From a virus (taxonomy: Duplodnaviria > Heunggongvirae > Uroviricota > Caudoviricetes): a DNA stretch of 17,915 bases. Of this stretch, positions 1-16,466 are shown piece by piece. Position 1 is the first letter of the stretch. The number at the start of each line of letters is the position of its first letter. A program made the position numbers and the translations under genes. Location of the stretch: the IMG/VR virus record IMGVR_UViG_2703718843_000008; one strand, 5' to 3'. The notes beneath the pieces were generated by a model. The model was not told where the DNA came from, did not search any database, and saw only the letters and a list, made by a program, of their open reading frames with translations.

Positions 1-411
1 ATGCCTGCCCCCGTCGTCCTGATCCTTGCGGCCGGGCGTGGAGAGCGCTTTCTCGCCTCCGGGGGAAATACCCATAAGTGTATCGGCTGGCGTCAGTCCC
101 CGGAGGTTGCGCCTTATCGCTGGCCATTTGAAGAAAACGGGAGAACTTTCGACCTTGCGATTGAACCGCAGATTACGACTAATGATCTGCGTCTGATGTT
201 GAGGCTGGCTCTTGCCGGCGGAGGAATAACAATTGCCACTCAGGAAACTTTCAGGCCATATATTGAAAGCGGTAAGCTTGTATCGCTGCTTGATGACTTT
301 CTTCCACAATTTCCGGGCTTCTATCTGTATTTCCCACAGCGTCGCAATATTGCACCAAAGCTCCGCGCCCTGATTGACTACGTCAAAGAATGGCGGCAGC
401 AATTGGCTTAA
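1..411 (+). CDS. yagP: LysR-family transcriptional regulator, C-terminal substrate-binding-domain fragment (probable gene remnant)
   Basis: 136-aa ORF starting at base 1. C-terminal part (TFDLAIEPQITTNDLRLMLRLALAGGGITIATQETFRPYIESGKLVSLLDDFLPQFPGFYLYFPQRR) resembles the end of a LysR substrate-binding domain. No N-terminal HTH, so probably a fragment. Size and position next to an integrase/tRNA-remnant match my recollection of yagP in E. coli K-12 (unverified). Confidence 0.55.
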   Translation: MPAPVVLILAAGRGERFLASGGNTHKCIGWRQSPEVAPYRWPFEENGRTFDLAIEPQITTNDLRLMLRLALAGGGITIATQETFRPYIESGKLVSLLDDFLPQFPGFYLYFPQRRNIAPKLRALIDYVKEWRQQLA

Positions 412-537
412 ATGTCTGCACCTGCACTGCCTGATGTCAGAACAGTATTTTGATGAATTGCCAAGGTTACAATGGCACAAATACGGCACAGGAGGAAACG
501 TGGTGTATTTAAATATGGGGTAACTCTTTGATTTTAA

Positions 538-554
538 TGGTGCCGATAATAGGA
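538..554. repeat. Distal att core: 17-bp direct repeat TGGTGCCGATAATAGGA, identical to 12161..12177 (18 bp identical if 537/12160 is included)
   Basis: Exact repeat seen at both ends of the satellite. The sequence is the reverse complement of the tRNA 3' end (TCCTATTATCGGCACCA). Confidence 0.65.
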
Positions 555-671
555 ATAAAATAAAACGATAACACACTGAAAAATATACAAAAAAGAAACA
601 CACCGTTAAGTAATGCCCCCGAAAATGCCCCCATAATAGATGCCGCAGTAAGTCGACTTGTCCCAAGGACT

Positions 672-714
672 GGTAAGTAATGTCAATAGCGGGAACAAAG
701 AGACATTACTTACC
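672..714. repeat. Perfect 13-bp inverted repeat (GGTAAGTAATGTC / GACATTACTTACC), 17-nt spacer, just downstream of the PRTase gene stop
   Basis: Seen directly. No U-tract follows on either strand, so it is not a canonical intrinsic terminator. Confidence 0.4.
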
Positions 715-734
715 GAGAATGGAATCCATTTAGG

Positions 735-1961
735 TTATGCTGGCCAATCCCACTGCTGATAGGCAGAGAATAGGCGCGTGAGCTCAGCAGGCGCAAGAAT
801 ATCAACAATATTAGCTCTGTAGCTATGCGATTTACCTAATGGAACATTTTCGAAATGATTAGCTTGATAAGGATTAAAATCGTGAAGCTCACCTAATGTT
901 GAGATATCGGTATTAATAGTTTTAAGCCAAGAAACAAGAATTACTTTTGCCCCTGTTCTCTGTATGTAAGCTCTTGCCGATTCAAAACTATAGCCTCGCG
1001 TTGTTATATCATCTATAAGAAGTACTGTTTTACCAGGGCCTAAAGGTGGTTTTTTATAGGTAGTTCTAGGATTTCTGTGTGGCTTAGAATTAAGACAAAT
1101 TGTATTAAGTTGATTGCAATGGTCAATTGCAACTCCCTCATTTCTTGCTTTTTGAGATTTTTTGGAAGTCGTATGCCTTAAAATAAGATCTGGGATATAC
1201 GTCTTGCGAAAACATTTTCCAAATATTGAAATCGCTTCATCCATGATATTATTCCCATATCCTTGCTTATGCCCTGGATAAACACTAACATAATTAATCA
1301 TCTTATGAATGCCACTAAAATAGAGACTGGATATTAAGGCACTCGTCCAAAATTCAGGATGGCCTAATCCATGTTTAGCAGCACGAGCATCTTCAGAGTA
1401 AAGAGTATACTCTTCCTTCATGGTGCTGAAAGGAGCAAGTGCATAGAAATTAAAATCACCATCGTGAATTTCATGACACCAAAGATGCTCTCTTAAACAG
1501 AAGGTATCTATAAATCTAGCAATATCTTTAGGGGTTGAAAACTCGAAACCATAATCTGTTTTGTCTGCCCACCATGTAGCTCTTAAAAAGAGCAACTCAC
1601 CATTAACTGCTGTTTGCATGTCGTTTATCGAAGCACCAATGTACAAAGTTTCTGTACTTTCCCAACCCATCAAATCAAGGACATATTTTGTAGCATCCGC
1701 AGTTGGCTTCCCTGGAATGCTCTTATCTTTCGCTCGACAAAGATATTTAAATTCTCCCCAATGCTTTTGTAACACATCCTCTAAAGGGGTTCTTTCATCT
1801 CCGACAACCCACCCCCTGTTAGTGAATACAACAAACTCGATCTTTTTAGTTCTGAAATATCTAATTAATTTATCTACCTCTGCAAAGATTTCGCTATCGA
1901 TCTTTCCCTTAGGCACAAGAATATCTTCAACACTAAGAATCACACCCTTAATTTTGCTCAT
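735..1961 (-). CDS. Two-domain protein: N-terminal HAD-like domain with non-canonical motif I, C-terminal type I phosphoribosyltransferase (PRTase) domain; candidate defense effector
   Basis: 408-aa ORF, ATG preceded by AAGGAAGA. C-terminal PRPP-binding signature GKTVLLIDDITTRGYS. N-terminal HAD-like motifs (FVVFTNRGW; GKP; IGASINDMQTA) but the usual DxD nucleophile position reads SVEDIL. AT-rich. Confidence 0.85.
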   Translation of the reverse strand: MSKIKGVILSVEDILVPKGKIDSEIFAEVDKLIRYFRTKKIEFVVFTNRGWVVGDERTPLEDVLQKHWGEFKYLCRAKDKSIPGKPTADATKYVLDLMGWESTETLYIGASINDMQTAVNGELLFLRATWWADKTDYGFEFSTPKDIARFIDTFCLREHLWCHEIHDGDFNFYALAPFSTMKEEYTLYSEDARAAKHGLGHPEFWTSALISSLYFSGIHKMINYVSVYPGHKQGYGNNIMDEAISIFGKCFRKTYIPDLILRHTTSKKSQKARNEGVAIDHCNQLNTICLNSKPHRNPRTTYKKPPLGPGKTVLLIDDITTRGYSFESARAYIQRTGAKVILVSWLKTINTDISTLGELHDFNPYQANHFENVPLGKSHSYRANIVDILAPAELTRLFSAYQQWDWPA

Positions 1962-1971
1962 TTCATCTTCC

Positions 1972-3036
1972 TTAGAGATCTAAGCTCTGCTGTATCGGCT
2001 GTGCTTTTAAATCATGATTATTATTCAAAATATAATTACTCATCTCATTCAATTCAAAAGGCATTAAAAAAGATAAAGAATTTCTATTTTCTTCAGCAAA
2101 CTTCAATTCTGGTCTACTTTCATACGTAGTAGGAAGATATGGACTCGCTATCTTTTTTGCATACTTAAAAGCATAATCAACAGTATGTGATGTTCCACTT
2201 TTAATATTCCATTCGACTGGTATTAGTGAATCACATAAAGCAGCCTGGATTCTGTTGCGCCTTACAAAATTTTCTGCGCTATATGTTTGTTCAGGTAGAT
2301 ACTCGGTAACGATAGCCCCACCATTAGAAACTATTGCTCGATATAACTCTTTAGAACCTTTCGGATACTCGACAAAAATCCCATTACCCAATACCGCAAT
2401 AGTTGGAATGCCATATCTCAGCGATTCATAATGACAACATTGATCTATTCCTGTCGCCAAACCACTGACTGTTGAAACATCTTTAGAATATAGAGAAGAA
2501 ACAATCAGTTTTACTAGAAAAATACCATCATCCGTTGGCTTTCGTGTCCCCACAATTGCAACAGATTTCTTATTAAGAAGTTCATAATTACCATGAACAA
2601 AAATCCAAAATGGCGGATCGCTTATGTTCTTTAATGATTGAGGAAATGTAGCCTGATCATAAAAGGTGAGCACAATACCATTTTTATTGAGTTCACGAGC
2701 TCTCTCCAGTCCCTTAGACCAAAGGTCTTGTTGAAATGTTTCCCAAGATATATTTTTAGGCAAGGAAACTCTTAGATATCCTGCCAAGGCATCAGCTGTA
2801 TTATCTTTTAATATATTCTTAAATCCAATTTTGGATTGATAGATTTTGCGAAGCGTCCAGTAACCAACCCCCTTTAGACAAGTTAAGGCAAGAAACGCAA
2901 TAATTTCATTTTTCCAAAACTCTCTAACTTCAGTGTAATCTTTATATTCCATTTTACGTTTGCCTTTTAGATTACAACCCGTACTCAACACAAAAAATTT
3001 AGAAAATTGTTGCCAAAAGCATATTATAAATAGCAT
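1972..3036 (-). CDS. DprA/Smf-like (SLOG superfamily) protein; candidate defense partner of the PRTase protein
   Basis: Rossmann-like DprA signature VAIVGTRKPTDDG ... SGLATGIDQCCH ... TIAVLGNG ... YP ... RRNRIQAAL. Stop codon lies 10 nt before the PRTase ATG, so the two are co-transcribed. True start may be the internal ATG at 2952 (MEYKDY...); the first 28 codons are AT-rich and include a TATAAT. Confidence 0.8.
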   Translation of the reverse strand: MLFIICFWQQFSKFFVLSTGCNLKGKRKMEYKDYTEVREFWKNEIIAFLALTCLKGVGYWTLRKIYQSKIGFKNILKDNTADALAGYLRVSLPKNISWETFQQDLWSKGLERARELNKNGIVLTFYDQATFPQSLKNISDPPFWIFVHGNYELLNKKSVAIVGTRKPTDDGIFLVKLIVSSLYSKDVSTVSGLATGIDQCCHYESLRYGIPTIAVLGNGIFVEYPKGSKELYRAIVSNGGAIVTEYLPEQTYSAENFVRRNRIQAALCDSLIPVEWNIKSGTSHTVDYAFKYAKKIASPYLPTTYESRPELKFAEENRNSLSFLMPFELNEMSNYILNNNHDLKAQPIQQSLDL

Positions 3037-3317
3037 CTTACCGCAGATTTGTGAAGCAACAACATCCCTAGGAGAAACCTTAACCTAGCGGGATAACTTA
3101 CTGACCAATCCTCAGCTAGCTCATTGAATTGCCCCCATATCGCACAGCCCCGCACGCCTGCCCGCTTCGCTTAACAGACTGGTTTTCATGCACCTCATAA
3201 ATCGTCTCAGAAGCCACCAAACAAGGGCTTTCTCGTCAAAAATGGTGCATAAGACTCATGCGTTTTCATGCGCCATAGACATGCACTCATGCGCTCTCAG
3301 GCCAGCCAGGGAAAAGG

Positions 3318-3346
3318 TGTTAAAAATCCCGGTACTCGACCGGGAT
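3318..3346 (-). terminator. Intrinsic terminator of the late (sid-psu-ogr) operon
   Basis: On the minus strand, stem AATCCCGGT / ACCGGGATT with 5-nt loop, followed by TTTTAA; about 20 nt downstream of the ogr-like stop. Confidence 0.55.
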
Positions 3347-3366
3347 TACGTGAGAGTTTTTTCTAA

Positions 3367-3639
3367 TCAGACAGGAATCTGCTGACGGCTTGACAGTTTT
3401 GACGCGGAGCCATAGCGATTGAGCGTTTGCTGTTGTTTTACCAGGGTTTGTGATTTGTCTGGTTCCTGTTCATTGCGCCGGGGTTTCATGATTATCTTAT
3501 CCACACTCTCCAGTGCCGTAAATGTGCAGGAACATTCCAGATTCTGGCACTGATACCACGAGCGTTTAACTGACGGAGCTTCATAGGCTGCTGTTCTGGC
3601 GTGTGCAACTGTACCGCATTCCGGACATTTAAGTGCCAT
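3367..3639 (-). CDS. ogr: Ogr/Delta-family zinc-finger late transcription activator
   Basis: MALKCPECGTVAHARTAAYEAPSVKRSWYQCQNLECSCTFTALESV matches the P2 Ogr / P4 Delta C-x2-C ... C-x4-C pattern. ATG at 3639 is preceded by AGGAG; the ORF-track start at 3648 is a GTG. Confidence 0.85.
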   Translation of the reverse strand: MALKCPECGTVAHARTAAYEAPSVKRSWYQCQNLECSCTFTALESVDKIIMKPRRNEQEPDKSQTLVKQQQTLNRYGSASKLSSRQQIPV

Positions 3640-3644
3640 TAATA

Positions 3645-4196
3645 TCACTCCTGTATATCGTTAATGTCATTCAGGCGTTGCTGAAAACGCAGATGTTGTG
3701 CCGGAGTGTAAGAGCCCTGGCAATCACGAATCATACTGGGGTCAGGCATCAAACCGGATTCATCCAGGATCTCACGATAATCCCCGGCAATTTCAGGCGG
3801 TGTTATTGCCAGCTGGCGAACCAGAGCACTGCGTAATATACGAAACGCAACGTCAACCCCTCCGCGTCCCTTCAGGAACGGAGCCAGTGCAGATGTCAGG
3901 GCTGCCCCATTCGCCTGCATAAAATTGCTGAGAGCGGCTTCTGTGCAGGCCTCCATCAATAAATGCTGCGAGTAAATGCATTCGCGCGCAGCACAGTTAA
4001 TTTGCCATTTCAGCACATCCAGACGTTCCCGCAGTAATTCGAGCTGTCGGGCATAATCTGCTGGTTTTTCTGTGGCAGTGAGGAGAGATGCTATCTGTTG
4101 TTCAACGGCTTTTCGGCTCTCACTATGTCCGGCCCACAGAATACGGGCATTCCGAAAACTGGTAAGTGCCTGGTCAGGTGTGCCTCGGGCCGTCAT
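3645..4196 (-). CDS. psu: Psu-like polarity suppression protein (P4 family)
   Basis: 183 aa. Segments LKWQINCAA ... FMQANGAALTSALAPFLKG ... YTPAQ resemble P4 Psu as I recall it. ATGA overlap with the upstream gene; AAGGAG RBS. Confidence 0.7.
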   Translation of the reverse strand: MTARGTPDQALTSFRNARILWAGHSESRKAVEQQIASLLTATEKPADYARQLELLRERLDVLKWQINCAARECIYSQHLLMEACTEAALSNFMQANGAALTSALAPFLKGRGGVDVAFRILRSALVRQLAITPPEIAGDYREILDESGLMPDPSMIRDCQGSYTPAQHLRFQQRLNDINDIQE

Positions 4197-4936
4197 ACTG
4201 CTTTCTCCTTCTCAGCAAGTTCCTGACGAACCTTTATTTTATGCATAGCTGCCGGAGAGAGTTGATTACTGAAATCCAGACGCGCCGCATAATCCGGGGC
4301 AACTCCCGCCAGTTTAAACACCGGGTCCTGTTCAGGCATCGCATCGTTAGCCAGAGCCGGTCTGGTGATATGTTTATGAATAAAGTCTTTCAGCACTGTG
4401 TCCGGGTCATTAACTGAATTCACCACACCCACAACGGCACTGGCTTCCCGGCCCATTGTGGATTTAAGCAGGCTCAGCGTCTGAATAAGCGCTTTTCCAT
4501 GCGACTGCATAAAATCCTCCCAGATTTGTTTTGCGCGAATATCCACAAGAATGTTATGCGCGTGGATATACTTTCCGGCTAATTCCGCAGCTTTCTGCGG
4601 CAAAAGTGCATTTTCGCTTTCCTGAGCCGCCAGCAGCTCATCAAAATCCTCAAGCGTTTCTCGTCCCAGCGCAATTTCCGTGCGCAGTTTTTTCATTTCC
4701 TTTGAGACCACGCCCTGACTTTCACGAAACAGCGTGCGCCACTCCTCATTCAGTGTATTCGTCGTGGATTCCATTTCAGCGCGGCGCTGGCGGATTGTCG
4801 CAATATTATCCGCTGCCGCTTTCTGCTGACGACGTGCTTCAAGCCATGCGTTTCTGGCTGTGTTCATGGTTTCCAGTGCCCGCTGCGTTACAGCCGGAAA
4901 AGTGGAAAGGTTGTTATTCACTGCGGTGTTGTTCAT
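4193..4936 (-). CDS. sid: Sid-like capsid size determination (external scaffold) protein, putative
   Basis: 247-aa helical, Gln/Glu/Ala-rich protein directly upstream of psu and ogr. Assignment rests on size and position, not a specific motif. Confidence 0.45.
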   Translation of the reverse strand: MNNTAVNNNLSTFPAVTQRALETMNTARNAWLEARRQQKAAADNIATIRQRRAEMESTTNTLNEEWRTLFRESQGVVSKEMKKLRTEIALGRETLEDFDELLAAQESENALLPQKAAELAGKYIHAHNILVDIRAKQIWEDFMQSHGKALIQTLSLLKSTMGREASAVVGVVNSVNDPDTVLKDFIHKHITRPALANDAMPEQDPVFKLAGVAPDYAARLDFSNQLSPAAMHKIKVRQELAEKEKAV

Positions 4937-5114
4937 GACTTCTCCTGTCGGGTTGGTTCGTTACGTCAATTGTGTCGTGGCTGACACAAGCACACTATCG
5001 GTGCTCAGTGTGTGGTGGCTGGCACAACGGGCGCTTGCGGTTATTCAGACGTGGCTATGAAAGCCAGCCAGATAAAAATGCCCACTGTTTCAGTCTGCTT
5101 TATGTCCCTGATGC

Positions 5115-5311
5115 GGTGGAACAGGTGAAACATGTGTTACAGCTTTGTTTTATAAATCATTTATATACACTGCACCGGTGGAACATCGCGGGTAACAAGG
5201 TGGAACAGCGGATTGGCTGGCGTTACATCTGTTCCACCTCACTATTTCAGAAGGTGGAACAGGTTCAGCCCCTGTAAAATACGGTTGTTCCACCTGTTTC
5301 ACCTGTTACCC
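5115..5311. repeat. Iteron cluster with AT-rich tract; putative satellite replication origin / cis replication region
   Basis: At least 7 copies of GGTGGAACA / TGTTCCACC in both orientations (5115, 5177, 5199, 5230, 5253, 5286), plus GGTGAAACA / TGTTTCACC variants and an AT-rich stretch at about 5137..5170, immediately downstream of the primase-helicase gene. Confidence 0.6.
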
Positions 5312-5337
5312 TTAATAAATAAGACTCACGCAAAGCC

Positions 5338-8010
5338 TTAACCCGGCACCTCGCTGTTGAAGACATAGAGCCTGCGGGGATTCATCTCTGGCGGGCGAAT
5401 GGTTGTCTGGAGTTTGCCATCAGTGGAGGGCAGCAGGTATCCACGATCTGCGCACAGACGCGCCACCTTGCGCGGGTCAAATCCCCTGCAGATTTCTTTC
5501 CAGCCGGACGGCATGACATAAAACGTAGTGACAGCTTCCGTGCCCTGCGCGGTACTGCCTTTCTCCACCCTGCGCCAGCCCACCATATTGGCGGGACGGT
5601 TGCGCTCGTCATACCAGTCTGCAAAGCGGCTGTACTGATTCGCGGTAAAGAAACTGCGAACCTGCTCCAGTGCGGCGATATCTTCCTGATTGGCGGTGTG
5701 CCCGCGCTCTTTCAGCCATGCGTTCAGGCAGACGCGGGTTGCCCGCAATGCTTCACCCTCAGGCCAGCCGGTGATACCCAGACGGGTTGCCAGTTCACCT
5801 GCCATCGCCACCAGTGCAAAGCGGTTCACAGCCCGGCCCACCTGATTGCCTGCATCTTTCGGAGTCAGGGCGGCAGCATATTCCTTCATCAGCGATTTTG
5901 CCTGTGCCGTTAGTCCGTTAAGATCAGCGGTCAGTGCTTTCAGCCACTCCCGGAACGGCGAACCGTAGTAGCAGGACGTGGCCCATTCAAGATGCTCTGC
6001 CAGAGCCTTGCCGCTGTCGAAGCCGTGCAGCTCCTCAAAAACGCCAAACTTCCCGGAATCGCTGGGGATCTGGATCATCCTGACTTCCATCCCGGCAAAA
6101 GTACGCTCACCGGCCTTTGCCGCATGTTCGGTCAGAGATAACTCGCCAGTTGAAAAGAACAACAGGCGCCACTGCTTACGGGTACGCAGTTCACCGTCCG
6201 TACCGGCACGACTCTTGCCCTGACCGTTTGCCAGCATGTAGGCGATATTGCCTGCCTCGCGTCCGTCAACTTCCCGGATCTCATCAAGCATCATGGCGGC
6301 ATCGTTGCGGCGGCTGGCACATCCCTCCAGCGCGTTGCCGGTGGCCCGCCATGTCTGCCAGTAGTCAGGCCCGCCGCAGACGGAGGTTGCCGCTTTCATG
6401 GTGGTGGTCTTACCGTCTGTCGATTCCCCTTTGAGGTGGTAGCCGCCGCCGTCCATACCAACCAGCCGTAACAGTGGTGCAGCAAAGGCCAGGCTGACAG
6501 CAAATGCCACGCGGGAGTTGCCGGTACAGTAGCGGGATACGTTCTCCCGCCATTCCTCTGTTGTGCCCGACACGCGGAAATCACGCCCCTGCACGGAAGT
6601 GGTCTGGAGAATGACACCCTCTGCACCTTCACCGCTGACCTCATCCTGCAGGACGTAAACCTGACCATGCCAGCCAGTACGGCTGACGCAGGTCACGCGA
6701 CGTTCCGGTTTACACAGTGAGATATATTCCATCAGGCGTGCGCGTGCCTCACCGGTGGTGCTGATATAAGACAGCCCGTTAACAAGCAGTACCCGGCGCA
6801 GTTCCTCACCACTGCCGCTCAGCATTTCCATCGGCATCGCCCAGCGGCGACGCTCACCCCACGTATCTTCCCATTCCAGCAGTCGTCCGAAGTTACCGCC
6901 ATCGGCATCGCAGGTGATTGCCGTCACGCGCAGCGGGCTGCATATTTTGACGTTCTGGATCTCCGTCTCACCGTTGCGCTGTACCTGCTTTTCATACCAG
7001 AGATATTCCTGGGTAAGACGGAACCCGTGCGGCAGTTGCGTGCGGCCTTCCCCGCACAGTACCAGACCGTTGCGAAAGGCTTCACGGGCACGGGTAATAC
7101 CGTGCTCCCGATGAAAGTCATTCCAGTCAGCCTTAATCTCTCCTGGTGGCAGCGTCATCCAGCCGCCAACAGCTTTTGCCGCCCGTTCAGCAAAGGCTCT
7201 GCCGGGATTCTCCCCCCCGTCCTGAAAATCGTTATCACCGGCGATGATAATTTTTACCTCAGGCCAGCGTGCCCGCAGCGACTGCGCCACATTGGGCAGG
7301 TTGCCCGCAGATATGGCAGCCACTACGCATCCGGCAGTGAGCTGGCTTACCGTCAGCGCCGTAGCGTAACCTTCGGTAATCACCACCTGTACCGGTGGTT
7401 CAGACGGTAACGGGCTGAGCGACACAAACGCGCCTTTCATCGTGCTGCCGGGCAGTATGCTTTTTTCACCCGTCGGGGCGATAAGCTGTGCACCGGTCAC
7501 GGCTCCGGTGTTGGTCGTGAGTGGTAACAGCAGGGAACCGGCAGGAAAATCCTTACCGCTGATATGCTGCACGCTTCCGGTCAGAGAGGCCGGGTATCCG
7601 GCGAACCCTTTTCCTGCCAGATAGGCACTTTCTCCCGTGTGGCTCTCTTTCATCAGCGTCGCCACGGTAAGGCTCATGTCGCGTTTAGGGGCTTTTTGTC
7701 TGGCAGGCTTAACAGGCAGTTCCTGCACATCCGGCACATTAAGCACCTGCGCCACCTGCTGCGCAGCCTTTCTGACGTTGTAGCCGGTTACGAGCTTAAC
7801 CAGATCCAGACCGTCACCATTGCCACACTGGCTGCAGATCCACGTCCCGCGCCCGTCAAGGTCATCGAGGCGAAAACGATCCTTGCCCCCACATTTCGGG
7901 CAGGGACCGTGCCTGCCGTTTTCAGGTACATCAATACGCAGCATATGCAGAATAACGGGCCATTTCCCCCGCGCGGCGGCTGAAATCTGCGTAACCGTCT
8001 GTATTGTCAT
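5338..8010 (-). CDS. P4 alpha-like replicative primase-helicase
   Basis: 890 aa. N-terminal zinc-binding motif CPKCGG ... CSQCG; Toprim-like VVITEGYATA ... IIIAGDND; P-loop GESTDGKTTT. ATGA overlap with the upstream ORF. Confidence 0.9.
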   Translation of the reverse strand: MTIQTVTQISAAARGKWPVILHMLRIDVPENGRHGPCPKCGGKDRFRLDDLDGRGTWICSQCGNGDGLDLVKLVTGYNVRKAAQQVAQVLNVPDVQELPVKPARQKAPKRDMSLTVATLMKESHTGESAYLAGKGFAGYPASLTGSVQHISGKDFPAGSLLLPLTTNTGAVTGAQLIAPTGEKSILPGSTMKGAFVSLSPLPSEPPVQVVITEGYATALTVSQLTAGCVVAAISAGNLPNVAQSLRARWPEVKIIIAGDNDFQDGGENPGRAFAERAAKAVGGWMTLPPGEIKADWNDFHREHGITRAREAFRNGLVLCGEGRTQLPHGFRLTQEYLWYEKQVQRNGETEIQNVKICSPLRVTAITCDADGGNFGRLLEWEDTWGERRRWAMPMEMLSGSGEELRRVLLVNGLSYISTTGEARARLMEYISLCKPERRVTCVSRTGWHGQVYVLQDEVSGEGAEGVILQTTSVQGRDFRVSGTTEEWRENVSRYCTGNSRVAFAVSLAFAAPLLRLVGMDGGGYHLKGESTDGKTTTMKAATSVCGGPDYWQTWRATGNALEGCASRRNDAAMMLDEIREVDGREAGNIAYMLANGQGKSRAGTDGELRTRKQWRLLFFSTGELSLTEHAAKAGERTFAGMEVRMIQIPSDSGKFGVFEELHGFDSGKALAEHLEWATSCYYGSPFREWLKALTADLNGLTAQAKSLMKEYAAALTPKDAGNQVGRAVNRFALVAMAGELATRLGITGWPEGEALRATRVCLNAWLKERGHTANQEDIAALEQVRSFFTANQYSRFADWYDERNRPANMVGWRRVEKGSTAQGTEAVTTFYVMPSGWKEICRGFDPRKVARLCADRGYLLPSTDGKLQTTIRPPEMNPRRLYVFNSEVPG

Positions 8011-8390
8011 ACTTCCCCCTGATACAACGTCACACCAGTACTGCAGAAGTCATCAAAGGTCGCCGGAAGCGTGCGGTACATCTCCGCCATTACTTCACAG
8101 CCGCGCGCGGTCAGTACCGGCGGCGCGGTCAGCAGTGACGGCTCCAGCATGTCAGTCAGCAGTGCCAGCGCGGCAGCGGCGCCCTGTGCTTCGCCGTACT
8201 CGTTAATCAGTGCGCACTCGATATGCAGCGCAATGGCCATTTCAATACGCTCCACCGTCAGGCTGTGCGGACCATACTGATCACTGCCAGTTTCGTTCAG
8301 CATTTTCTGCCGCCATGCTGAAGCAATAGCCCGCCGGTAAAGCGCGGTTGTCATTTCTGCCGGGAAAATGGAAACCTGCGGCTGGTTCAT
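8007..8390 (-). CDS. Hypothetical satellite early-operon protein
   Basis: 127-aa ORF with strong RBS (GAAGGAGGTG); translationally coupled on both sides by ATGA overlaps. Confidence 0.55.
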   Translation of the reverse strand: MNQPQVSIFPAEMTTALYRRAIASAWRQKMLNETGSDQYGPHSLTVERIEMAIALHIECALINEYGEAQGAAAALALLTDMLEPSLLTAPPVLTARGCEVMAEMYRTLPATFDDFCSTGVTLYQGEV

Positions 8391-8671
8391 CTGGCACCTC
8401 CTTCAATCAGTGCACAGCTGTGCGCAATATCCGTCAAATCTGCCCGCAGGTACTCCATCAGCGCGGCGACACCATGCGCACAGCCAGCGTCCAGTGCTCC
8501 GGCCTGAGACGAGTATTCAGAAAAGAGAAGCTGGAGCATGTCGCAGGCATTTCTTGCGCGGGTCAGCTTTCCGAAACTGTCCTCTGACAACCCATAGGCA
8601 AAAGCACCGGTATTGTGTTTTTCAGGCAAAGTGTGGCCCTGAGCACCGTTGTGCCCGTTTGAAATATTCAT
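8387..8671 (-). CDS. Hypothetical satellite early-operon protein
   Basis: 94-aa ORF, ATG start with ACGGAG RBS, ATGA overlap with the downstream gene. Confidence 0.55.
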   Translation of the reverse strand: MNISNGHNGAQGHTLPEKHNTGAFAYGLSEDSFGKLTRARNACDMLQLLFSEYSSQAGALDAGCAHGVAALMEYLRADLTDIAHSCALIEGGAR

Positions 8672-8702
8672 CGTGGATTACTCCGTTTTCAGCGGTATTT
8701 TG

Positions 8703-9062
8703 TCAGAGAAACTTTGAATAGTGACCGTCGTCAGGCTCAGCAGAACGCCGTATGCTACGCTCCCGCCAGCGGATAAATAGCACAGACGGATGCAGTGTCA
8801 GCGGGCCGGAACCACTACCGCCTGCAGGAGCTGGTGCAGGCTTAAAGAGCGGTACATCAAACAGGCGCGTATACCGCTGTTCAAACCATGCCAGAGGGCA
8901 GGAAGAAAGCTGGTTGTCGCTGTCATGACGTATCAGCACTTCACAGCTGAATTCAGGATTAACCAGCGCCACAGAGGGCGAGGCTTCAATTAATCGGATA
9001 ATCGTGACCGTCCAGCCACGTTCATGCTGCCAGCGTTCGCCGGGGTGCGGATAATTACGCAT
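8703..9062 (-). CDS. Hypothetical satellite early-operon protein
   Basis: ORF-track start at 9092 is a TTG; the ATG at 9062 (MRNYPHPGERW...) is preceded by GGAGGTG and is the likelier start. Confidence 0.5.
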   Translation of the reverse strand: MRNYPHPGERWQHERGWTVTIIRLIEASPSVALVNPEFSCEVLIRHDSDNQLSSCPLAWFEQRYTRLFDVPLFKPAPAPAGGSGSGPLTLHPSVLFIRWRERSIRRSAEPDDGHYSKFL

Positions 9063-9231
9063 GTTCACCTCCGCAGGGAATGCGCCCGGCAAAGCTCAGT
9101 ACATAATCCGGGGCAAGTCTGCGCCGCGCTGACCGCTCGTTATCTGCGGTGATCCTTAACATCACAGGACGGGCATTGCGTTGACTGCGGTTGATCGCCG
9201 CAAATAACCAGGTACACTTCTGTTTAGCCAT
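9055..9231 (-). CDS. Small hypothetical protein (58 aa), first gene of the leftward operon
   Basis: ATG with AAGAGGT RBS; MAKQKCTWLFAAINRSQRNARPVMLRITADNERSARRRLAPDYVLSFAGRIPCGGEHA. Below the 60-aa ORF-track cutoff. Stop overlaps the next gene's start. Confidence 0.4.
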   Translation of the reverse strand: MAKQKCTWLFAAINRSQRNARPVMLRITADNERSARRRLAPDYVLSFAGRIPCGGEHA

Positions 9232-9320
9232 CTTCGTTACCTCTTATAACGGTTGGTTAAATGCCCGATTTGTGTTCCCGCACAATCGGGCATTGCTTTT
9301 ACAAGCGAACTATACTTACA

Positions 9321-9365
9321 ATGGTAATTACCATGTAGTCATCATATTCTAGGGTAATTACCATG
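9321..9365. promoter_or_regulatory. Two palindromic operator-like sites in the divergent promoter region
   Basis: ATGGTAATTACCAT (9321..9334, perfect 14-bp palindrome) and GGTAATTACC (9353..9362). The second overlaps the ATG of the ribbon-helix-helix gene. Confidence 0.5.
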
Positions 9366-9536
9366 TCAACACCACAAGAGAAACGTTCCCCACCATTCCA
9401 AATGCGTCTTACCGACGATTTTAGGTTGCAACTCGAAAAAGAAATGCGCAAAGATGGAGATAGCGCGTTGGCAACTTGGATTAAAAGAATTTTACGTAAA
9501 GAACTACAATCACGCGGGATTGACCCTAAAGGTTAA
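9363..9536 (+). CDS. Arc/Mnt-like ribbon-helix-helix repressor (57 aa)
   Basis: PPFQMRLTDDFRLQLEKEMRKDG-DSALATWIKRILRKEL follows the beta-strand/helix/helix pattern of Arc-type repressors. Divergent from the early operon. Not in the ORF track (under 60 aa). Confidence 0.55.
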   Translation: MSTPQEKRSPPFQMRLTDDFRLQLEKEMRKDGDSALATWIKRILRKELQSRGIDPKG

Positions 9537-9568
9537 TCAGTTAAATATTACTAACTATCAATTAAGGC

Positions 9569-9859
9569 TTAGGGAGTAGGTGATAATCTATTCCCTTTAT
9601 TAATTGCTCTTGCCTTATTTCTCATCCCCTCAAACTGTTGACCTGAGTTTTCTTCAAACCCATCTCGCCACTTATAATAATCAGCAGCGCGCCATCGGGA
9701 CATCCGACCTATTTTTATAGGTTTTGGAAAGCGATTCAGAGAAATCAATCGATAAATCCATTTGTCACTTAATAAACAATCGGAAGTAATAAACTTCATA
9801 TCGATCAGAGAATCCATTGAAGGTCGTTGCAAAGTAGTATTATCATGTTTAGATAACAT
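9569..9859 (-). CDS. AlpA/Vis-family HTH protein (excisionase or regulator)
   Basis: 96 aa; IYRLISLNRFPKPIKIGRMSRWRAADYYKW matches the AlpA-type pattern (FP-P-I-G ... W ... W). GGAG RBS. Confidence 0.75.
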   Translation of the reverse strand: MLSKHDNTTLQRPSMDSLIDMKFITSDCLLSDKWIYRLISLNRFPKPIKIGRMSRWRAADYYKWRDGFEENSGQQFEGMRNKARAINKGNRLSPTP

Positions 9860-9984
9860 TCATCATTCTCCGTTTATCTAAGTCTATTGGCTTCAACACG
9901 GAAAATTAAAACATAGGTTATAAATGAGAAAAATGTGACTAATGAAAAAAATCCAAAATCATTAGTCACAATAATTGTTAACAT

Positions 9985-10809
9985 TTAGTTAAACTTAATG
10001 TTTTTCATGCAACTACGTAGCAAGCTAACAACAGTATCATAGCTCAAAGGTGGTTCTCCGGTCTTAGGCCAGAACTCACTGGCATGTTGAAAAAGATAAT
10101 CAGCTATCGCTGCTGGACTCTCTCTTCTTAGCCTCATATCACGATGATAGAGCGAAATAATAGCCATGAGTATTTCAGTTCGAGGAACAGCATGTTTTTG
10201 TTTTTGCGCCTCAGATTGTGATTTATATTTATTGGCGTTTTTTATCCGTTTTTGTTCGCATAAGACTATATCAATGAATTTTTGAATCTGTACCTTTGTA
10301 ATCCACAAAACCTCAAAAAGATAATAATTTTCTTTTTCATCATAATTTACATAAAGAATTACCTTACAATTTATATTAGGCGTACCCGCCAGTAGAAAAT
10401 GAATAGGCCAGGAATCCGGTTGCCCCTCATGCTTAACTAACAGATCTTTATATTCATAATCAACAGCCCATAAACCGGATATAAAGCATCGAATAAAACC
10501 ATTTTTATCAATTAAATTATTTTCATCAGGGATTCTTATAGAGCTTAAGTCTGACAACATAATATTGCCATTTCTATCTCGTGGTAAATATTTCAGATTA
10601 GATAAGAACTCATCCATTTGACCATCAATCTTCAAACCACATGAAACATCATACTCATCATCATGGAATTCCATGCATAGCTCTACATCTCGTTCTCTGG
10701 CAAACCAGAGTATATCCTTTTCACTACAACCAATTTTTTCTGAAGCTTCATCCAACTGGTAGTAATCTCTGAGCAGAGAATCAGTATTATTAATTTTTAA
10801 AATATTCAT
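9985..10809 (-). CDS. Hypothetical protein, AT-rich orphan cargo gene translationally coupled to the integrase
   Basis: 274-aa ORF whose ATG overlaps the integrase stop (ATGA). Marked AT-rich codon usage; no motif I can recognise. Confidence 0.65.
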   Translation of the reverse strand: MNILKINNTDSLLRDYYQLDEASEKIGCSEKDILWFARERDVELCMEFHDDEYDVSCGLKIDGQMDEFLSNLKYLPRDRNGNIMLSDLSSIRIPDENNLIDKNGFIRCFISGLWAVDYEYKDLLVKHEGQPDSWPIHFLLAGTPNINCKVILYVNYDEKENYYLFEVLWITKVQIQKFIDIVLCEQKRIKNANKYKSQSEAQKQKHAVPRTEILMAIISLYHRDMRLRRESPAAIADYLFQHASEFWPKTGEPPLSYDTVVSLLRSCMKNIKFN

Positions 10810-11996
10810 TTATGAGTACCAATTAGCTCAGATAAATAATTAGCATACCATTGCATCATTTCTCTTCTCCCTTCGAGATATTGGGCATGGTTATAAATTC
10901 CACGAATAGAGTTTTTGTCCGAATGAGCAAGCTGGGTTTCAATCCAAGCGCTGTTAAATCCTTTCTCATGTAGAATTGTACTCATCGTATGCCTGAAACC
11001 ATGTCCCGTAACACGCCCTGCATATCCAATACGTTTAAACACCTGATTGATGCTTGCTTCACTCATAAATTTGCTAGGATCGTTGCGTCCAGGGAACATC
11101 AGCGGGTAGTTCCCAGTTAGTTCTTTCAAACTTTTGAGATGGGATAATGCTTGTTTTGGTAACGGGACAATATGGCTCCTACGCATTTTCATACGTTCTT
11201 TTGGGATCTCCCACACCGCATTATCAAAATCCACCTCTCGCCACTCACCTGCTCGTAGTTCTCCAGTTCGTAGACCTGTCAGGATAAGTAAATGCGCCCC
11301 CAACAATACAATTGGACTTCCTGAATAAGAATTAAGGGCATTAAAGAACTCCGGTAGTTCGTTGGCTTTGAGGAATGGATAGTGGACTGCTTCATGTCCT
11401 TGCATCGCACTGGCAAGATCCGGTGCCGGATTGTAGATTGCCCTACCCGTTACGATGGCATAGCGAAAAACTTCACCGCATCGCTGACGGACTTTCTTCG
11501 CTTTCTCCATAGCGCCTCGAGCTTCTATCAACCTCAGAACTTCAAGCAGTTCAAGGGGCTGAATATCAGCTATAGGTCTGTGCCCAATATGCGGAAAAAT
11601 GTCTTTCTCAAATGCCTCAATGATGTCGGAAGCATAGCCCTCAGACCATTTGGATGATTTCATTTTGTGCCACTCTAACGCCACTTCTCTGAATGGGTTA
11701 AGTGTCTCAATCGCTGCGTTTAAAGCCTGCTTTTTGGCTTTTTTGACTTCGCCGGGATCTTCACCTGCTGCGAGTAGTTTCTTTGCGTCTTCTCGTTTTT
11801 GTCTGGCATCAGCAAGTGTGACTGTTGGATAAACACCAAAGGACAATCGTTTCTCTTTACCAGCAAAACGGTATTTCATACGCCAGTAACGCGAGCCATT
11901 AGGTTCGACCTGAAGGTATAGGCCACCTCCATCAAACAGCTTATAGCTCTTCTCTTTTCCTTTCGCAGCTTCAACCTTGCGGGCATTCAGCATCAT
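10806..11996 (-). CDS. int: P4-type tyrosine integrase
   Basis: N-terminus KSYKLFDGGGLYLQVEPNGSRYWRMKYRFAGKEKRLSFGVYP is typical of P4-family integrases; C-terminal catalytic residues HGFRHT ... Y. ORF-track start at 12065 is a TTG; ATG at 11996 or 11993 (MMLNARKVE) fits the family N-terminus better. Confidence 0.9.
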   Translation of the reverse strand: MMLNARKVEAAKGKEKSYKLFDGGGLYLQVEPNGSRYWRMKYRFAGKEKRLSFGVYPTVTLADARQKREDAKKLLAAGEDPGEVKKAKKQALNAAIETLNPFREVALEWHKMKSSKWSEGYASDIIEAFEKDIFPHIGHRPIADIQPLELLEVLRLIEARGAMEKAKKVRQRCGEVFRYAIVTGRAIYNPAPDLASAMQGHEAVHYPFLKANELPEFFNALNSYSGSPIVLLGAHLLILTGLRTGELRAGEWREVDFDNAVWEIPKERMKMRRSHIVPLPKQALSHLKSLKELTGNYPLMFPGRNDPSKFMSEASINQVFKRIGYAGRVTGHGFRHTMSTILHEKGFNSAWIETQLAHSDKNSIRGIYNHAQYLEGRREMMQWYANYLSELIGTHK

Positions 11997-12160
11997 TGGG
12001 GGCACATTTCCTAGACCGAACAGAACATGCCCCTGATTGTGCCCCCAACCGCGTGTTGATTTCAAGAGACAAGGGTTGACCTCAAACGTATGAAAACAAC
12101 GTAATATATATGTTTTTAAATGATTTTGTTGATGTGGGTTGACTTGGGAAAACTAGGTGA

Positions 12161-12209
12161 TGGTGCCGATAATAGGAGTCGAACCTACGACCTTCGCATT
12201 ACGAATGCG
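12161..12209 (-). pseudogene. ptwF: Partial tRNA-Thr(CGU) gene, 3' 49 nt only (thrW-like att remnant)
   Basis: Minus strand reads CGCATTCGTAATGCGAAGGTCGTAGGTTCGACTCCTATTATCGGCACCA: anticodon stem-loop with CGT anticodon, T-arm (GGTTCGACTCC), acceptor 3' strand and CCA. No D-arm or 5' acceptor strand upstream. The symbol is my recollection of the K-12 name. Confidence 0.75.
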
Positions 12210-12318
12210 ATGTTAATGCATTTTTAACTACTTGAGCAATCAATCAAAACAACATACTTTATATTATAAAACACCAAGTTATAGCAATAAACCCGTTGAT
12301 TGAAATTAACAAAAGTTG

Positions 12319-13719
12319 ATGTTTATTCCCTCCATTTACTTACACCAGCAGTTACATTATTGTAAGACAGCAATTCTCAACTGGAGCCGAAAAATGGCGC
12401 TTTCAAGACAAAAATTTACCTTCGAAAGACTTCGCAGATTCACCTTACCGGAAGGGAAAAAACAAACTTTTCTTTGGGATGCAGATGTAACAACCCTGGC
12501 ATGCCGAGCAACTAGCGGAGCAAAAGCCTTTGTATTCCAAAGCGTATATGCGGGGAAAACCCTTCGCATGACTATTGGCAACATTAACGACTGGAAGATT
12601 GATGATGCGAGAGCCGAGGCAAGACGGTTACAAACATTGATCGATACAGGGATAGATCCACGAATTGCTAAGGCTGTAAAAATCGCAGAAGCAGAATCCC
12701 TGCAGGCAGAATCACGTAAAACAAAAGTGACTTTCTCCGTCGCCTGGGAAGACTATCTTCAAGAATTGAGAACCGGTATCAGTGCAAAAACTAAACGCCC
12801 ATATTCTACTCGATACATTGCCGATCACATTAACTTGTCCAGTCGTGGAGGCGAAAGTAAAAAAAGAGGCCAAGGCCCGACTTCGGCTGGACCATTGGCT
12901 AGTTTGCTCAACCTGCCGTTATCGGAGCTAACCCCAGATTACATAGCAGCGTGGCTGAGTACAGAAAGGCAAAATAGACCTACCGTCACTGCTCACGCTT
13001 ATCGCCTACTACGTGCTTTCATCAAATGGAGTAATTATCAGAAAAAATATCAAGGGATCATTCCTGGCGATCTGGCACAAGATTACAACGTAAGAAAAAT
13101 GGTTCCCGTGTCAGCGAGTAAAGCTGATGATTGCCTGCAAAAGGAACAACTAAAAAGCTGGTTTAGTGCCGTGCGTAGCCTCAATAATCCTATTGCATCG
13201 GCCTATCTCCAAGTACTTTTGCTCACTGGTGCTCGGCGTGAAGAAATTGCGTCGCTTCGCTGGTCAGACGTAGATTTCAAATGGTCAAGCATGCGAATTA
13301 AAGACAAGATCGAAGGTGAACGTATCATCCCTCTCACTCCTTATGTTTCTGAATTGTTAAATGTACTAGCGCAATCCCCAAATTCTGACGTAAATAAGGA
13401 GGGTTGGGTTTTCAGAAGTAACAGTAAAAGTGGCAAAATTATTGAGCCGCGTTCAGCGCACAACAGAGCGTTAGTGCTGGCTGAGTTACCACATATCAGC
13501 CTTCACGGTTTACGTCGTAGTTTTGGTACTTTGGCCGAGTGGGTTGAAGTTCCCACTGGTATTGTTGCTCAAATTATGGGACACAAACCCAGCGCTCTTG
13601 CCGAAAAACACTATCGCCGTCGTCCGTTAGATCTGTTACGAAAATGGCACGAGAAAATTGAGACATGGATCTTAAATGAAGCAGGTATTACCATAAAAAA
13701 CAACGTTGATATGCGTTGA
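12319..13719 (+). CDS. intF: Tyrosine integrase of the neighbouring cryptic prophage
   Basis: Tyrosine recombinase motifs LLLTGARREE ... HGLRRSFGT ... GHKPSALAEKHY. First ATG at 12319 gives 466 aa (ORF-track start 12316 is a TTG). Confidence 0.85.
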   Translation: MFIPSIYLHQQLHYCKTAILNWSRKMALSRQKFTFERLRRFTLPEGKKQTFLWDADVTTLACRATSGAKAFVFQSVYAGKTLRMTIGNINDWKIDDARAEARRLQTLIDTGIDPRIAKAVKIAEAESLQAESRKTKVTFSVAWEDYLQELRTGISAKTKRPYSTRYIADHINLSSRGGESKKRGQGPTSAGPLASLLNLPLSELTPDYIAAWLSTERQNRPTVTAHAYRLLRAFIKWSNYQKKYQGIIPGDLAQDYNVRKMVPVSASKADDCLQKEQLKSWFSAVRSLNNPIASAYLQVLLLTGARREEIASLRWSDVDFKWSSMRIKDKIEGERIIPLTPYVSELLNVLAQSPNSDVNKEGWVFRSNSKSGKIIEPRSAHNRALVLAELPHISLHGLRRSFGTLAEWVEVPTGIVAQIMGHKPSALAEKHYRRRPLDLLRKWHEKIETWILNEAGITIKNNVDMR

Positions 13720-13835
13720 TTCCATTAAAAATCAACATATTACAAAATATCATCAACTATTGATCAAGATAGATTTTCATGTATCGTAATACACAGTTTA
13801 GTCAATGATACAGCAACTACACAGGAGATAAGCCA

Positions 13836-14276
13836 ATGGCAACCCCAGCAACTGTATCCATAGAACCCACTCTGGCAGCTATCAGAGCTCGCTGGTGTAT
13901 TAATTCAAGTAAAACAACTCAATCCTTTAACGATCCTGCGTCCATGGAAGAGGTTGTCGAGTATCTCAAAGGAACATACTCAGCTCTTCGCAAGTCTGTC
14001 GCATGCGCCAAACTGAAAATTTTACATCTTAAACAAAGAATGCAAAATGCTACTAACTTTCTCGCGCGTCTGATGTCATGTAAAAATCAGGCATCCAGAT
14101 CGCATCACAGTACGGCTAAATCAGCTAAAAGTGCCTTATCATCAGATTCAGGTGATGGTAGTGACCCCGACCCCGAGCCCGAAACGTTTCCTTCTGCCTT
14201 CATTACTACCCCTACTAATTCAATAATGCTTAAAGCTTTCTTTGCCAATATCTCAATCACTGAGGTGGCAAAATGA
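13836..14276 (+). CDS. yagN: Hypothetical prophage protein
   Basis: 146-aa ORF, AGGAG RBS, Ser-rich acidic C-terminal region. Symbol from recollected size and context only. Confidence 0.6.
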   Translation: MATPATVSIEPTLAAIRARWCINSSKTTQSFNDPASMEEVVEYLKGTYSALRKSVACAKLKILHLKQRMQNATNFLARLMSCKNQASRSHHSTAKSAKSALSSDSGDGSDPDPEPETFPSAFITTPTNSIMLKAFFANISITEVAK

Positions 14277-14497
14277 GCGCATTCAAACTCCCGGATACAT
14301 CTCAATCACAGCTCATTTCAACAGCTGAGTTAGCTAAAATCATTAGCTACAAATCTCAAACCATTCGTAAATGGCTTTGTCAGGACAAATTGCCTGAGGG
14401 GCTACCTCGCCCAAAACAAATCAATGGCCGCCATTACTGGTTACGTAAAGATGTCCTCGATTTTATAGATACATTTTCTGTACGAGAAAGTCTGTAA
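14273..14497 (+). CDS. Small HTH protein, AlpA/excisionase-like
   Basis: 74 aa, GAGGTGG RBS, start overlaps the upstream stop (ATGA). LISTAELAKIISYKSQTIRKWL ... INGRHYWLRKDVLDFI. Confidence 0.55.
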   Translation: MSAFKLPDTSQSQLISTAELAKIISYKSQTIRKWLCQDKLPEGLPRPKQINGRHYWLRKDVLDFIDTFSVRESL

Positions 14498-14615
14498 TAA
14501 ATTACAGATTTAATTTTATTGATTTATAGCGATGTTGCCCCGAGAAAAATGGGGCAACACTGAGAAATTTCAGATAGTAGTTTTATATTGAGATAACAAA
14601 GAGGTTTCCTTAAAA

Positions 14616-15470
14616 ATGTCTAATAGTGTTACTAATTTTGAGATGAGCAGCGTTCTACCAGGAAAAAAACCTTGTCAAGGCAAAAACAATGAGTCACAGG
14701 TAGTACAGACTACTCCCATAAAAAAACACTCAGTCACGTTCAAAAATCAATCTTCATTAGGAGTAATTGATCATTATGCCAGACTAACAAATAAATCTCA
14801 CTCTTCCGTAATAGCGGAAGTTGTGGATTTGGCTATCCCTATATTAGAAAAATGCAATCGTCATAACTGGTCAATAAATGAAATAAAAAATGACCTGTTA
14901 AAGTTCTCTATAAAAGAAAGCATCAATCGAAGCCGAGGTAAAACAGAAGTAACTCTGGAAGAGTACTGTTCGTTAATCTGGAAAACGAACATCATGAGTC
15001 CATTAAAAATCCCCATTGCAGATTACTTTCAACTGAACGCTAATGATGAATTCATGGGGAAAGATGAAAAAACAGTTATACGTGAAAGGCTATCCTCGCT
15101 AAGGGAAAATTACGATATGGAAAAAGCCATTTACATTTACAATCAAAGACATTTTGATGTAAAGCATCAAAGTGTCTCAGGATATTCAAACATTATTCTT
15201 ATTCATAGAACAACCTTTGAGGGTTATTACTTTGATGCCGGGCAGGCTCTACTCTTGTCAACATCCCAATTGATTATATTCGGGATAAATGAAGTTCTTA
15301 GAAGAAAGGGGATTGTTATGCCTTATCCGGTTGTTTGTTGGATTGATATTTACCATGTCAATGAAATGGTGGTTATGCTGCCAGTGCTCCGCAAAACAGA
15401 TGTTTCCAACCGTGTTAATGTACCGGATGACATCATTATAAACCCATACTCACAAGAGAGCAGAACCTAA
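14616..15470 (+). CDS. yagM: Hypothetical prophage protein
   Basis: 284-aa ORF, AAAGAGG RBS, AT-rich. Symbol from recollected size and context only. Confidence 0.65.
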   Translation: MSNSVTNFEMSSVLPGKKPCQGKNNESQVVQTTPIKKHSVTFKNQSSLGVIDHYARLTNKSHSSVIAEVVDLAIPILEKCNRHNWSINEIKNDLLKFSIKESINRSRGKTEVTLEEYCSLIWKTNIMSPLKIPIADYFQLNANDEFMGKDEKTVIRERLSSLRENYDMEKAIYIYNQRHFDVKHQSVSGYSNIILIHRTTFEGYYFDAGQALLLSTSQLIIFGINEVLRRKGIVMPYPVVCWIDIYHVNEMVVMLPVLRKTDVSNRVNVPDDIIINPYSQESRT

Positions 15471-15496
15471 GAGGTAACAAAGAAGGACAAACAATT

Positions 15497-16195: not shown

Positions 16196-16299
16196 TTCCA
16201 GAAGCTAATTGCAGAGTAACTTTTTAACAGCCATCACAGGCTGGGGCTACCTTCGTCTCAAATTTAGATGTTGGATAGGTATTATATAATGGCATTGTG

Positions 16300-16444: not shown

Positions 16445-16466
16445 GGACCAAATACAGGTATATATT

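Follow-up and report, generated by a model that had tools for sequence, protein, structure and literature searches.

The noncoding interval between the ogr/delta-like gene and the DprA-like gene of a P4-like satellite of E. coli is very probably the cos (cohesive-end packaging) site of that satellite, with cleavage at this site predicted by homology. It is a divergent member of the P2/P4 family of cos sites that lies closest to the Fels-2/PSP3 type, and its layout is the expected one and has already been described. The analysis covers a 17,915-nt stretch of DNA from a virus of the Caudoviricetes (IMG/VR record IMGVR_UViG_2703718843_000008), hereafter called the window, and all positions are given on it. 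The interval is homologous to and collinear with the cos regions of helper phages, it holds the single cos candidate of the element and its conservation ends 19-20 nt past the predicted nick; the binding of its boxes by terminase and the exact nick positions are predictions made from the sequence.

The satellite element and its surroundings

Positions 537-12177 of the window are a P4-like satellite (Table 1) whose att repeats are spaced by 11,623 bp, as compared with 11,624 bp for P4, and 181-12209 of the window are 99.8% identical to E. coli strain PCP07014. On the minus strand the order is int, alpha primase, sid, psu, delta, the gap and the ShosA/ShosT cargo, the ogr/delta-like gene being the last of a sid-psu-delta operon. 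Pfam identified the P4-like core set of Moura de Sousa and Rocha, namely integrase, Psu, Delta, Sid and alpha primase, together with a weakly matched AlpA-like protein (E=4e-4), and all the hijacking genes are intact. Psu shares 30% identity with P4 Psu and the delta-like protein 45% with the first zinc-finger domain of P4 delta, and the satellite is therefore a distant relative of P4. The same gene order as in the window is found in relatives at the argW tRNA site (L255 and L256).

Table 1. Features of the satellite and of its cos region in the window.
Feature	Position	Strand	Remarks
Distal att repeat ATGGTGCCGATAATAGGA	537-554	+	Exact 18-nt direct repeat; satellite end beyond the cargo
ShosT, HAD/phosphoribosyltransferase-like effector	735-1961	-	PADLOC ShosT E=1.5e-92; weak Pfam HAD and PRTase
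ShosA, DprA-like	1972-3036 (longest ORF)	-	PADLOC ShosA E=3.3e-90; Pfam DNA_processg_A E=4e-58
Cargo-specific leader, cos to ShosA start	2953-3139	-	Travels with the ShosTA cassette
Predicted 19-nt cohesive end GGCGTGCGGGGCTGTGCGA	3140-3158	-	Predicted left nick between 3159 and 3158, right nick after 3140
Left nick flank AAGCG-AAGCGGGCA	3159-3172	-	AAGCGGGCA at 3159-3167 common to helpers
Proximal cos box TGCATGAAAACC	3181-3192	-	Sole exact match in the window
Distal YGCAY array	3245-3293	-	Five boxes in one orientation, starting at 3293, 3285, 3272, 3262 and 3249
Terminator-like hairpin of the late operon	3320-3347	-	Stem AAUCCCGGU/ACCGGGAUU at 3325-3347, loop CGAGU
ogr/delta-like late activator, single domain	3367-3648	-	Pfam Ogr_Delta E=7e-16; RefSeq start 3639
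Psu	3645-4196	-	
Sid-like protein	4193-4936	-	
Alpha-type primase	5338-8010	-	DUF927/Toprim (Pfam)
274-aa protein, then AlpA-like HTH protein, Icd-like, DUF5375 protein		-	Between integrase and alpha primase
Integrase	10806-12065	-	
Int-proximal att repeat ATGGTGCCGATAATAGGA	12160-12177	+	Within the 3' end of a tRNA-Thr-like sequence (12164-12237)

Two further elements were noted outside the gap. Two TGT-N12-ACA dyads, TGTGTCGTGGCTGACACA (4971-4988) and TGTGTGGTGGCTGGCACA (5009-5026), lie 38 bp apart in the intergenic gap between the alpha and sid-like genes and are likely to be the sid-psu-delta late promoter, since they have the form of the Ogr/Delta-activated late promoters of P2 and P4. 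An exact 14-nt direct repeat, GGTAATTACCATGT, is found at 9323-9336 and 9353-9366, 30 bp apart, between small ORFs in an intergenic part of the early region, and could be an operator or iteron-like site.

The tRNA-Thr sequence beside the satellite integrase is a 3' fragment only: its identity to the normal thrW locus ends at 12209, it scores 45 bits with Rfam and no tRNA is called there by ARAGORN. Past the fragment there is a second integrase (12316-13719, plus strand), followed by genes for an HTH, a resolvase-like and a YagK/YfjJ protein (12316-17093), an order that seems to resemble the intF end of the K-12 CP4-6 prophage, and the satellite therefore appears to sit in tandem with another island. 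At the other end of the window, positions 1-77 match the paoD end and the sequence from 181 onward matches a truncated LysR gene in PCP07014, and about 4 kb of PCP07014 between those points (MFS transporter, hydrolase and LysR gene) are missing from the window.

The gap and the end of the late operon

An earlier sequence-only reading of this DNA had described a noncoding gap of about 330 bp between the late module and the cargo, and indeed no supported ORF of at least 40 aa was found between the ogr/delta-like and the DprA-like genes. The gap is probably longer still, 2953-3366 or about 414 bp, because the RefSeq start of the DprA-like gene, which is likely to be the true start of ShosA, is at 2952 and the PADLOC ShosA profile begins at residue 37-40 of the ORF. 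The G+C-rich tract that had been pointed out at 3125-3170 is a local maximum of 62% G+C at 3125-3174, the adjoining cargo having 20-44% G+C, and it corresponds to the core of the P2-family cos.

A late-operon terminator had also been placed in the gap, and a suitable hairpin lies 20 nt past the delta stop, with a 9-bp G+C-rich stem at 3325-3347 (-15.2 kcal/mol by RNA folding) and, after it, five consecutive U at 3322-3326, of which the first two still belong to the paired stem. This hairpin is kept in eight of eight satellites, where both substitutions preserve wobble pairs. It was found by folding: a consensus terminator scan made no call for it, the fold z-score of the 71-nt stretch that contains it is unremarkable and Rfam gave no match near its thresholds in the gap.

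Similarity to the cos regions of helper phages

The minus strand of 3120-3366 was compared with helper cos regions by Smith-Waterman alignment with 500 dinucleotide shuffles, using for P2, P4 and 186 the circular junctions of records that end at experimentally defined cohesive ends. The alignment score was 43 (z=24.9) with the cos of vB_EcoM-813R9 and 41 (z=23.8) with that of Fels-2, the z-scores for P2, P4 and 186 were 8.1, 6.3 and 4.8, respectively, and reverse-complement scores were at noise. Collinear, strand-specific alignment to the Fels-2-type cos spans about 140 nt. The sequence-only reading had found the G+C-rich tract loosely reminiscent of the P2/P4 cohesive ends and had proposed alignment with the P2/P4 cos region as a check; that alignment is collinear and strand-specific and the similarity is clear from the z-scores for P2 and P4, but the closest relatives are of the Fels-2/PSP3 type (z=24-25). 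With a slash at each nick, the P2 junction reads ...GTGCATTAAAACC-N8-AAGCGGGCG/GGCGAGGCGGGGAAAGCAC/TGCGCGC and the Fels-2-type junction, which has GGGCA/GGCGTGGCGGGGATACGAG, reads GGTGCATGAAAACCA-N7-AAGCGGGCA/GGCGTGGCGGGGATACGAG/CGCGCGC. A passage of PMC5694545 that cites Ziermann and Calendar (1990) gives P2 and P4 a shared cos core of roughly 55 bp.

Database searches located the same region. In blastn against phages at E<=1e-5, 2950-3450 (501 bp) gave no match; a relaxed search (96-nt query, E<=10) matched helper cos regions weakly, with E about 0.02-0.07, and the enterobacterial matches all fell at one locus, between gpA/DinI and the portal gene, which is the cos locus. INPHARED and IMG/VR yielded no helper with the exact core of the window: a search of IMG/VR with a 14-mer of the core returned mostly G+C-rich chance matches, of which only satellites were left after filtering for cos-like flanks, and the P2 portal relatives in IMG/VR all have a P2-type cos, none having the satellite variant. 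Phage 500465-1, which carries GGCGTGCGGGG, was considered as a matching helper and rejected, since a number of genes in its record are broken into fragments, which points to indel errors. Of 5426 complete E. coli genomes, 1410 have a cos region of the Fels-2 type, the two examples checked being P2-like prophages, and strain SHP24 carries both the satellite family of the window and a Fels-2-type P2-like prophage. We infer that in nature the satellite is helped by a phage of the Fels-2/PSP3 type and not by one of the P2 type.

A scan of genome contigs yielded mostly chance matches in Streptomyces and Acidobacteria and one cos-like site in Arsenophonus, which has GGGCA/GGCGTGCGGGGCT and normal box spacing, so that the variant core is found elsewhere as well. 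This site lies at about 560-800 of a 1042-bp contig of Arsenophonus nasoniae and reads TGCACAAAAAAC-N8-TAGCGGGCA/GGCGTGCGGGGCTAC. Upstream of it the repeats are of the TGCAC type, apart from one TGCAT and one CGCAC, and not mainly TGCAT, at positions of the -131/-121/-111/-101/-29 type, and it seems that the sequence of the boxes co-varies by lineage while their positions stay fixed.

An array of YGCAY boxes upstream of the predicted nick

The five boxes of the distal array start at -135, -127, -114, -104 and -91 relative to the predicted nick, and the observed number of YGCAY boxes was reached in none of 1000 shuffles. Five of the ten matches to YGCATGW in the window are on the minus strand within 3186-3293, in which about 0.04 would be expected on one strand by arithmetic from the shuffle mean. 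In P2, P4, 186, Fels-2, vB_EcoM-813R9 and the Arsenophonus contig, the six family members from which the three-box feature with its 13- and 10-nt spacing was derived in this analysis, boxes are at about -124 (-123 in P2), -111, -101 and -29. The satellite keeps the 13- and 10-nt spacing at -127, -114 and -104, has its proximal box at -34 and has extra boxes at -135 and -91, and GTGCATGTCTATGGCGCATGAAAACGCATGA of its array aligns with GTGCATGTCTATGCCGCATGAGATCGCATGA of the helper. The proximal box is thus 5 nt and the distal boxes are 3 nt farther from the nick than in helpers, as a result of a 5-nt AAGCG tandem duplication by the nick and of a net 2-nt shortening between the arrays. The array is a candidate terminase recognition (cosB-like) region.

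A repeat of ACTCATGCG had drawn the attention of the sequence-only reading. There are two exact copies in the window, at 3254-3262 and 3285-3293, which is 1-2 nt away from where they had been placed, and they are the -104 and -135 boxes. Taken by itself the motif is not above chance, with three matches at up to one mismatch against 3.9 expected; the pair is real, but it is part of the cos box array and not a separate feature.

The proximal box TGCATGAAAACC is the start of the cos core of roughly 55 bp of the P2 family, about 29 nt left of the nick in helpers, and it fits the family pattern TGCA(T)KAAAACC. Fels-2-type helpers have the same sequence there, and P2, P4 and 186 have TGCATTAAAACC. 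Between the distal and the proximal boxes (alignment columns 150-195, about 3186-3230 of the window) the satellites form two haplotypes with linked differences, GACGAGAAAGCCC...GGCTTC...GAGGTGCATG and GAGGCGAAAACCT...GGTA(A/T)C...GGCATGCATG.

The nick flank and the predicted cohesive end

The left flank of the predicted nick matches AAGCGGGCRGGCGWG exactly and is invariant in eight satellites. Its AAGCGGGCA portion fits the AAG(C/T)GGGC(A/G) that is expected 5' of the left nick, and AAGCG at 3168-3172 is the 5-nt tandem duplicate, which is specific to the satellite family of the window. Within the predicted 19-nt cohesive end, GGCGTG and CGGGG match the helper core GGCGTGGCGGGG save for one missing G, and GGCGTGCGGGG accounts for 11 of the 12 bases of the core GGCG(A/T)GGCGGGG; without gaps, the 19-mer is about 10/19 identical to the 186 core. 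Its right half differs from all helpers examined. The 19-mer of P2 and P4, GGCGAGGCGGGGAAAGCAC, has no match in the window at up to 3 mismatches, and the (T/C)GCGCGC that follows the 19-mer in P2, P4, 186 and Fels-2-type phages is absent, TATGGGG standing there instead; some satellite relatives have CGCGC overlapping positions 15-21. The nick positions given here are transferred from helpers by homology, and cleavage is predicted on the same ground.

Zero-mismatch matches to AAGCGGGCAGGCGTG (AAGCGGGCA/GGCGTG, 3153-3167) and to TGCATGAAAACC are each unique in the 17.9 kb, and there is therefore no competing cos candidate. A clear cos match elsewhere in the element, which the sequence-only reading had named as evidence that would speak against a cos in the gap, is thus not present.

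Conservation ends at the predicted cohesive end

Eight IMG/VR satellites are near-identical in the gap up to the 19-mer and unrelated straight after it. The left flank is shared by 46 metagenome contigs, for which it was the search pattern, so that they are exact there by construction. Across 34 distinct cargo contexts, the information content is at least 1 bit at 19 of the first 20 positions past the predicted nick, the exception being position 16 with 0.6; position 21 has 0.5, and the values farther on are about 0.1-0.6. As the length of this conserved block, 19-20 nt, fits the 19-nt cohesive ends of the family, the predicted register of the nick is supported. The family consensus past the nick is GGCGKGCGGGGCTGYNCRC followed by G, and variants ending in GCAC match the P2 end in ungapped register. 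The 19-mer of the window departs from this consensus at position 19, where it has A (C in 31 of the 34 contexts), and at position 20, and because of these departures the junction by which ShosTA was acquired may be located within the cohesive end.

Metagenome contigs that end at the nick were sought as a proxy for virion ends and none was found; one breaks off 14 nt beyond the nick, apparently because the assembly failed at the variable cargo. Another metagenome contig (L275, ERZ781269 NODE-53), at about 5026-5053 on its minus strand, combines the same left flank, including the AAGCG duplication, with a helper-like core, GGCGTGGCGGGGGCTACGAGCGCGCC, which points to recombination inside the cos between lineages of satellites and of helpers.

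Among 5426 complete E. coli genomes, 3141-3450 are common to 856 and the cargo side to 10, and in most relatives, among the matches listed, the homology starts at 3141-3145. Relatives at the argW site have different integrases and different cargos in either orientation. Exchangeable cargo, here ShosTA, begins directly past the 19-mer, and the cos is therefore the fixed edge of a cargo hotspot. As in P4, the site adjoins the late operon on one side and bounds the variable, non-essential cargo on the other, and it lies within the att borders of the element.

The cargo of the window is an adjacent ShosT/ShosA gene pair, the ShosTA defence system by PADLOC. Its leader was found in 10 of the 5426 E. 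coli genomes, each with the ShosTA cassette. The cassette (735-3139) is itself rare, being present in 10 of 5426 complete E. coli genomes and always in the satellite of the window; no other genomic context was found for it, nor any relative at the DNA level in the phage collection.

Other explanations for the conserved interval

A decayed, non-functional cos in a lineage that is no longer packaged, and that persists by descent or as a recombination boundary, could also look like this, and some features point that way. The core is altered with respect to all sequenced helpers, with the 5-nt duplication, the missing G and a different right half of the 19-mer, and helpers retain GGCGTGGCGGGGATACGAGCGCGCGC even where their flanks are 23% diverged; no helper core that matches was found and the window is itself off the family consensus at positions 19-20. 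The variant is, however, fixed and is strongly conserved in satellites that differ in integrase and tRNA site and carry 34 unrelated cargos, the spacing within the box array is kept exactly, the element has the length of P4 and its hijacking genes are all intact, and conservation for exactly 19-20 nt past the nick would not be expected of a relic, which we therefore consider unlikely. We regard as highly improbable that the interval serves purely in transcription control, as a late terminator and a cargo promoter with no role in packaging. The conserved hairpin with its U tract after delta would suit such a role, as would the only promoter-like element of the leader, a perfect TATAAT as -10 hexamer upstream of ShosA (3023-3028, minus strand) with a poor -35; but this hexamer sits in the cargo-specific and not in the conserved part, and the conserved part, 3141-3324, is common to helper cos loci but not to promoters. 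The sequence-only reading had expected the cargo promoter in the gap, and this expectation found no support in the promoter scans: the sigma-70-like scan gave plus-strand matches only, so that nothing passed on the cargo strand, a relaxed minus-strand scan gave nothing convincing and the gap has no TGT-N12-ACA dyad of the Ogr/delta type.

A coding role for the conserved block, either for a small protein (65 aa, from a plus-strand ORF at 3188-3385) or for a small RNA, has in our view a negligible probability. The ORF is present in a mechanical ORF list and the plus strand is free of stops over 70-95 codons in eight of eight relatives, but these are about 86-93% identical and the open frame is therefore of little weight; three of the eight have a 1-nt indel in an A run within the ORF, and RefSeq has no gene at this place. 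Gaps of 1, 2 and 5 nt are required to align the block with the cos regions of helpers, and hence the two have no reading frame in common, and for a small RNA the lack of any Rfam match near thresholds is again unfavourable.

Proposed function and implications

In the reading that we prefer, that of a cos site, a P2-family helper that is induced or infecting would supply the terminase (homologues of P2 gpM/gpP), which would recognise the YGCAY boxes at 3245-3293 together with TGCATGAAAACC and make staggered nicks around GGCGTGCGGGGCTGTGCGA (3140-3158), thereby producing 19-nt 5' cohesive ends. The P4-sized unit of 11.6 kb would be packaged in helper capsids made small by the Sid homologue, and the hairpin at 3325-3347 would end the sid-psu-delta transcript just before the cos.

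The private variant of the cos, in which the AAGCG duplication moves the boxes by half a helical turn and the 19-mer is one absent from all sequenced helpers, could conceivably be adaptive, by tuning the level of cutting or the choice of terminase with respect to the helper genome or by fitting an unsequenced type of helper, although we consider this doubtful. If it were so, the core of L275 and the junction of the window inside the 19-mer would be footprints of cargo exchange at cut cos ends.

With the cos located, the ends of the packaged genome and the precise border of the defence-cargo hotspot would be fixed. The likely helpers are P2-like phages of the Fels-2/PSP3 type, which is common in E. 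coli, and about 16% of complete E. coli genomes carry the satellite lineage. The YGCAY boxes, whose positions are fixed in P2, P4, 186, Fels-2 and the satellite, are a candidate recognition element of the P2-family terminase. The established picture is unchanged by these data, which fill in one lineage.

Comparison with known systems

The closest relatives, the Fels-2/PSP3-type cos sites of Peduoviridae (Fels-2, RE-2010, vB_EcoM-813R9 and E. coli prophages), have the same order and orientation of elements over about 140 nt and share with the satellite the distal boxes GTGCATGTCTATG(C/G)CGCATGA..CGCATGA, TGCATGAAAACCA, AAGCGGGCA/GGCGTG and CGGGG, and in these phages, too, variable defence cargo begins just past the cos. 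In contrast to them, the satellite has an extra AAGCG, one G fewer in GGCGTGGCGGGG and two additional YGCAY boxes, its 19-mer ends in CTGTGCGA instead of ATACGAG and is not trailed by CGCGCGC, and it lacks the strong terminator hairpin that they have between the distal and proximal boxes.

In P4 (NC_001609) and P2 (NC_001895), as in the satellite, the cos follows the late sid/delta/psu operon directly and is oriented alike relative to it, with non-essential cargo on its far side, and the 13/10-nt spacing of YGCAY boxes, the proximal TGCAT.AAAACC box and AAGCGGGC before GGCG at the nick are shared; the 19-mer differs from GGCGAGGCGGGGAAAGCAC, the local alignment of the core being identical at 20 of 24 positions. 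The late operon is sid-psu-delta in the satellite and sid-delta-psu in P4, for which reason the cos follows delta here but psu in P4, and in the prophage the block of late genes, cos and cargo here lies past alpha, at the int-distal end.

The cos of lambda, which consists of cosN and cosB, has 12-nt ends as against 19-nt ends in the P2 family. It has no sequence relationship to the satellite cos but is alike in its logic, a nicking site with a one-sided array of repeats that bind protein, binding being in our case the predicted role of the YGCAY boxes.

Rousset et al. (2022, PMC9122126) described a defence hotspot that adjoins the cos, both in P4-like satellites and in P2-like phages, and the hotspot has been placed between psu and int (PMC9122126; Moura de Sousa and Rocha 2021, PMC8628076). 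A DprA and PRTase system is among the cargos described, the validated one having come from a P2 hotspot (PMC9122126). The integrated satellite of the window differs in having the hotspot between delta/cos and the distal att site, and agrees with the published hotspot in that defence cassettes unrelated to one another, whichever their orientation, begin right next to the cos.
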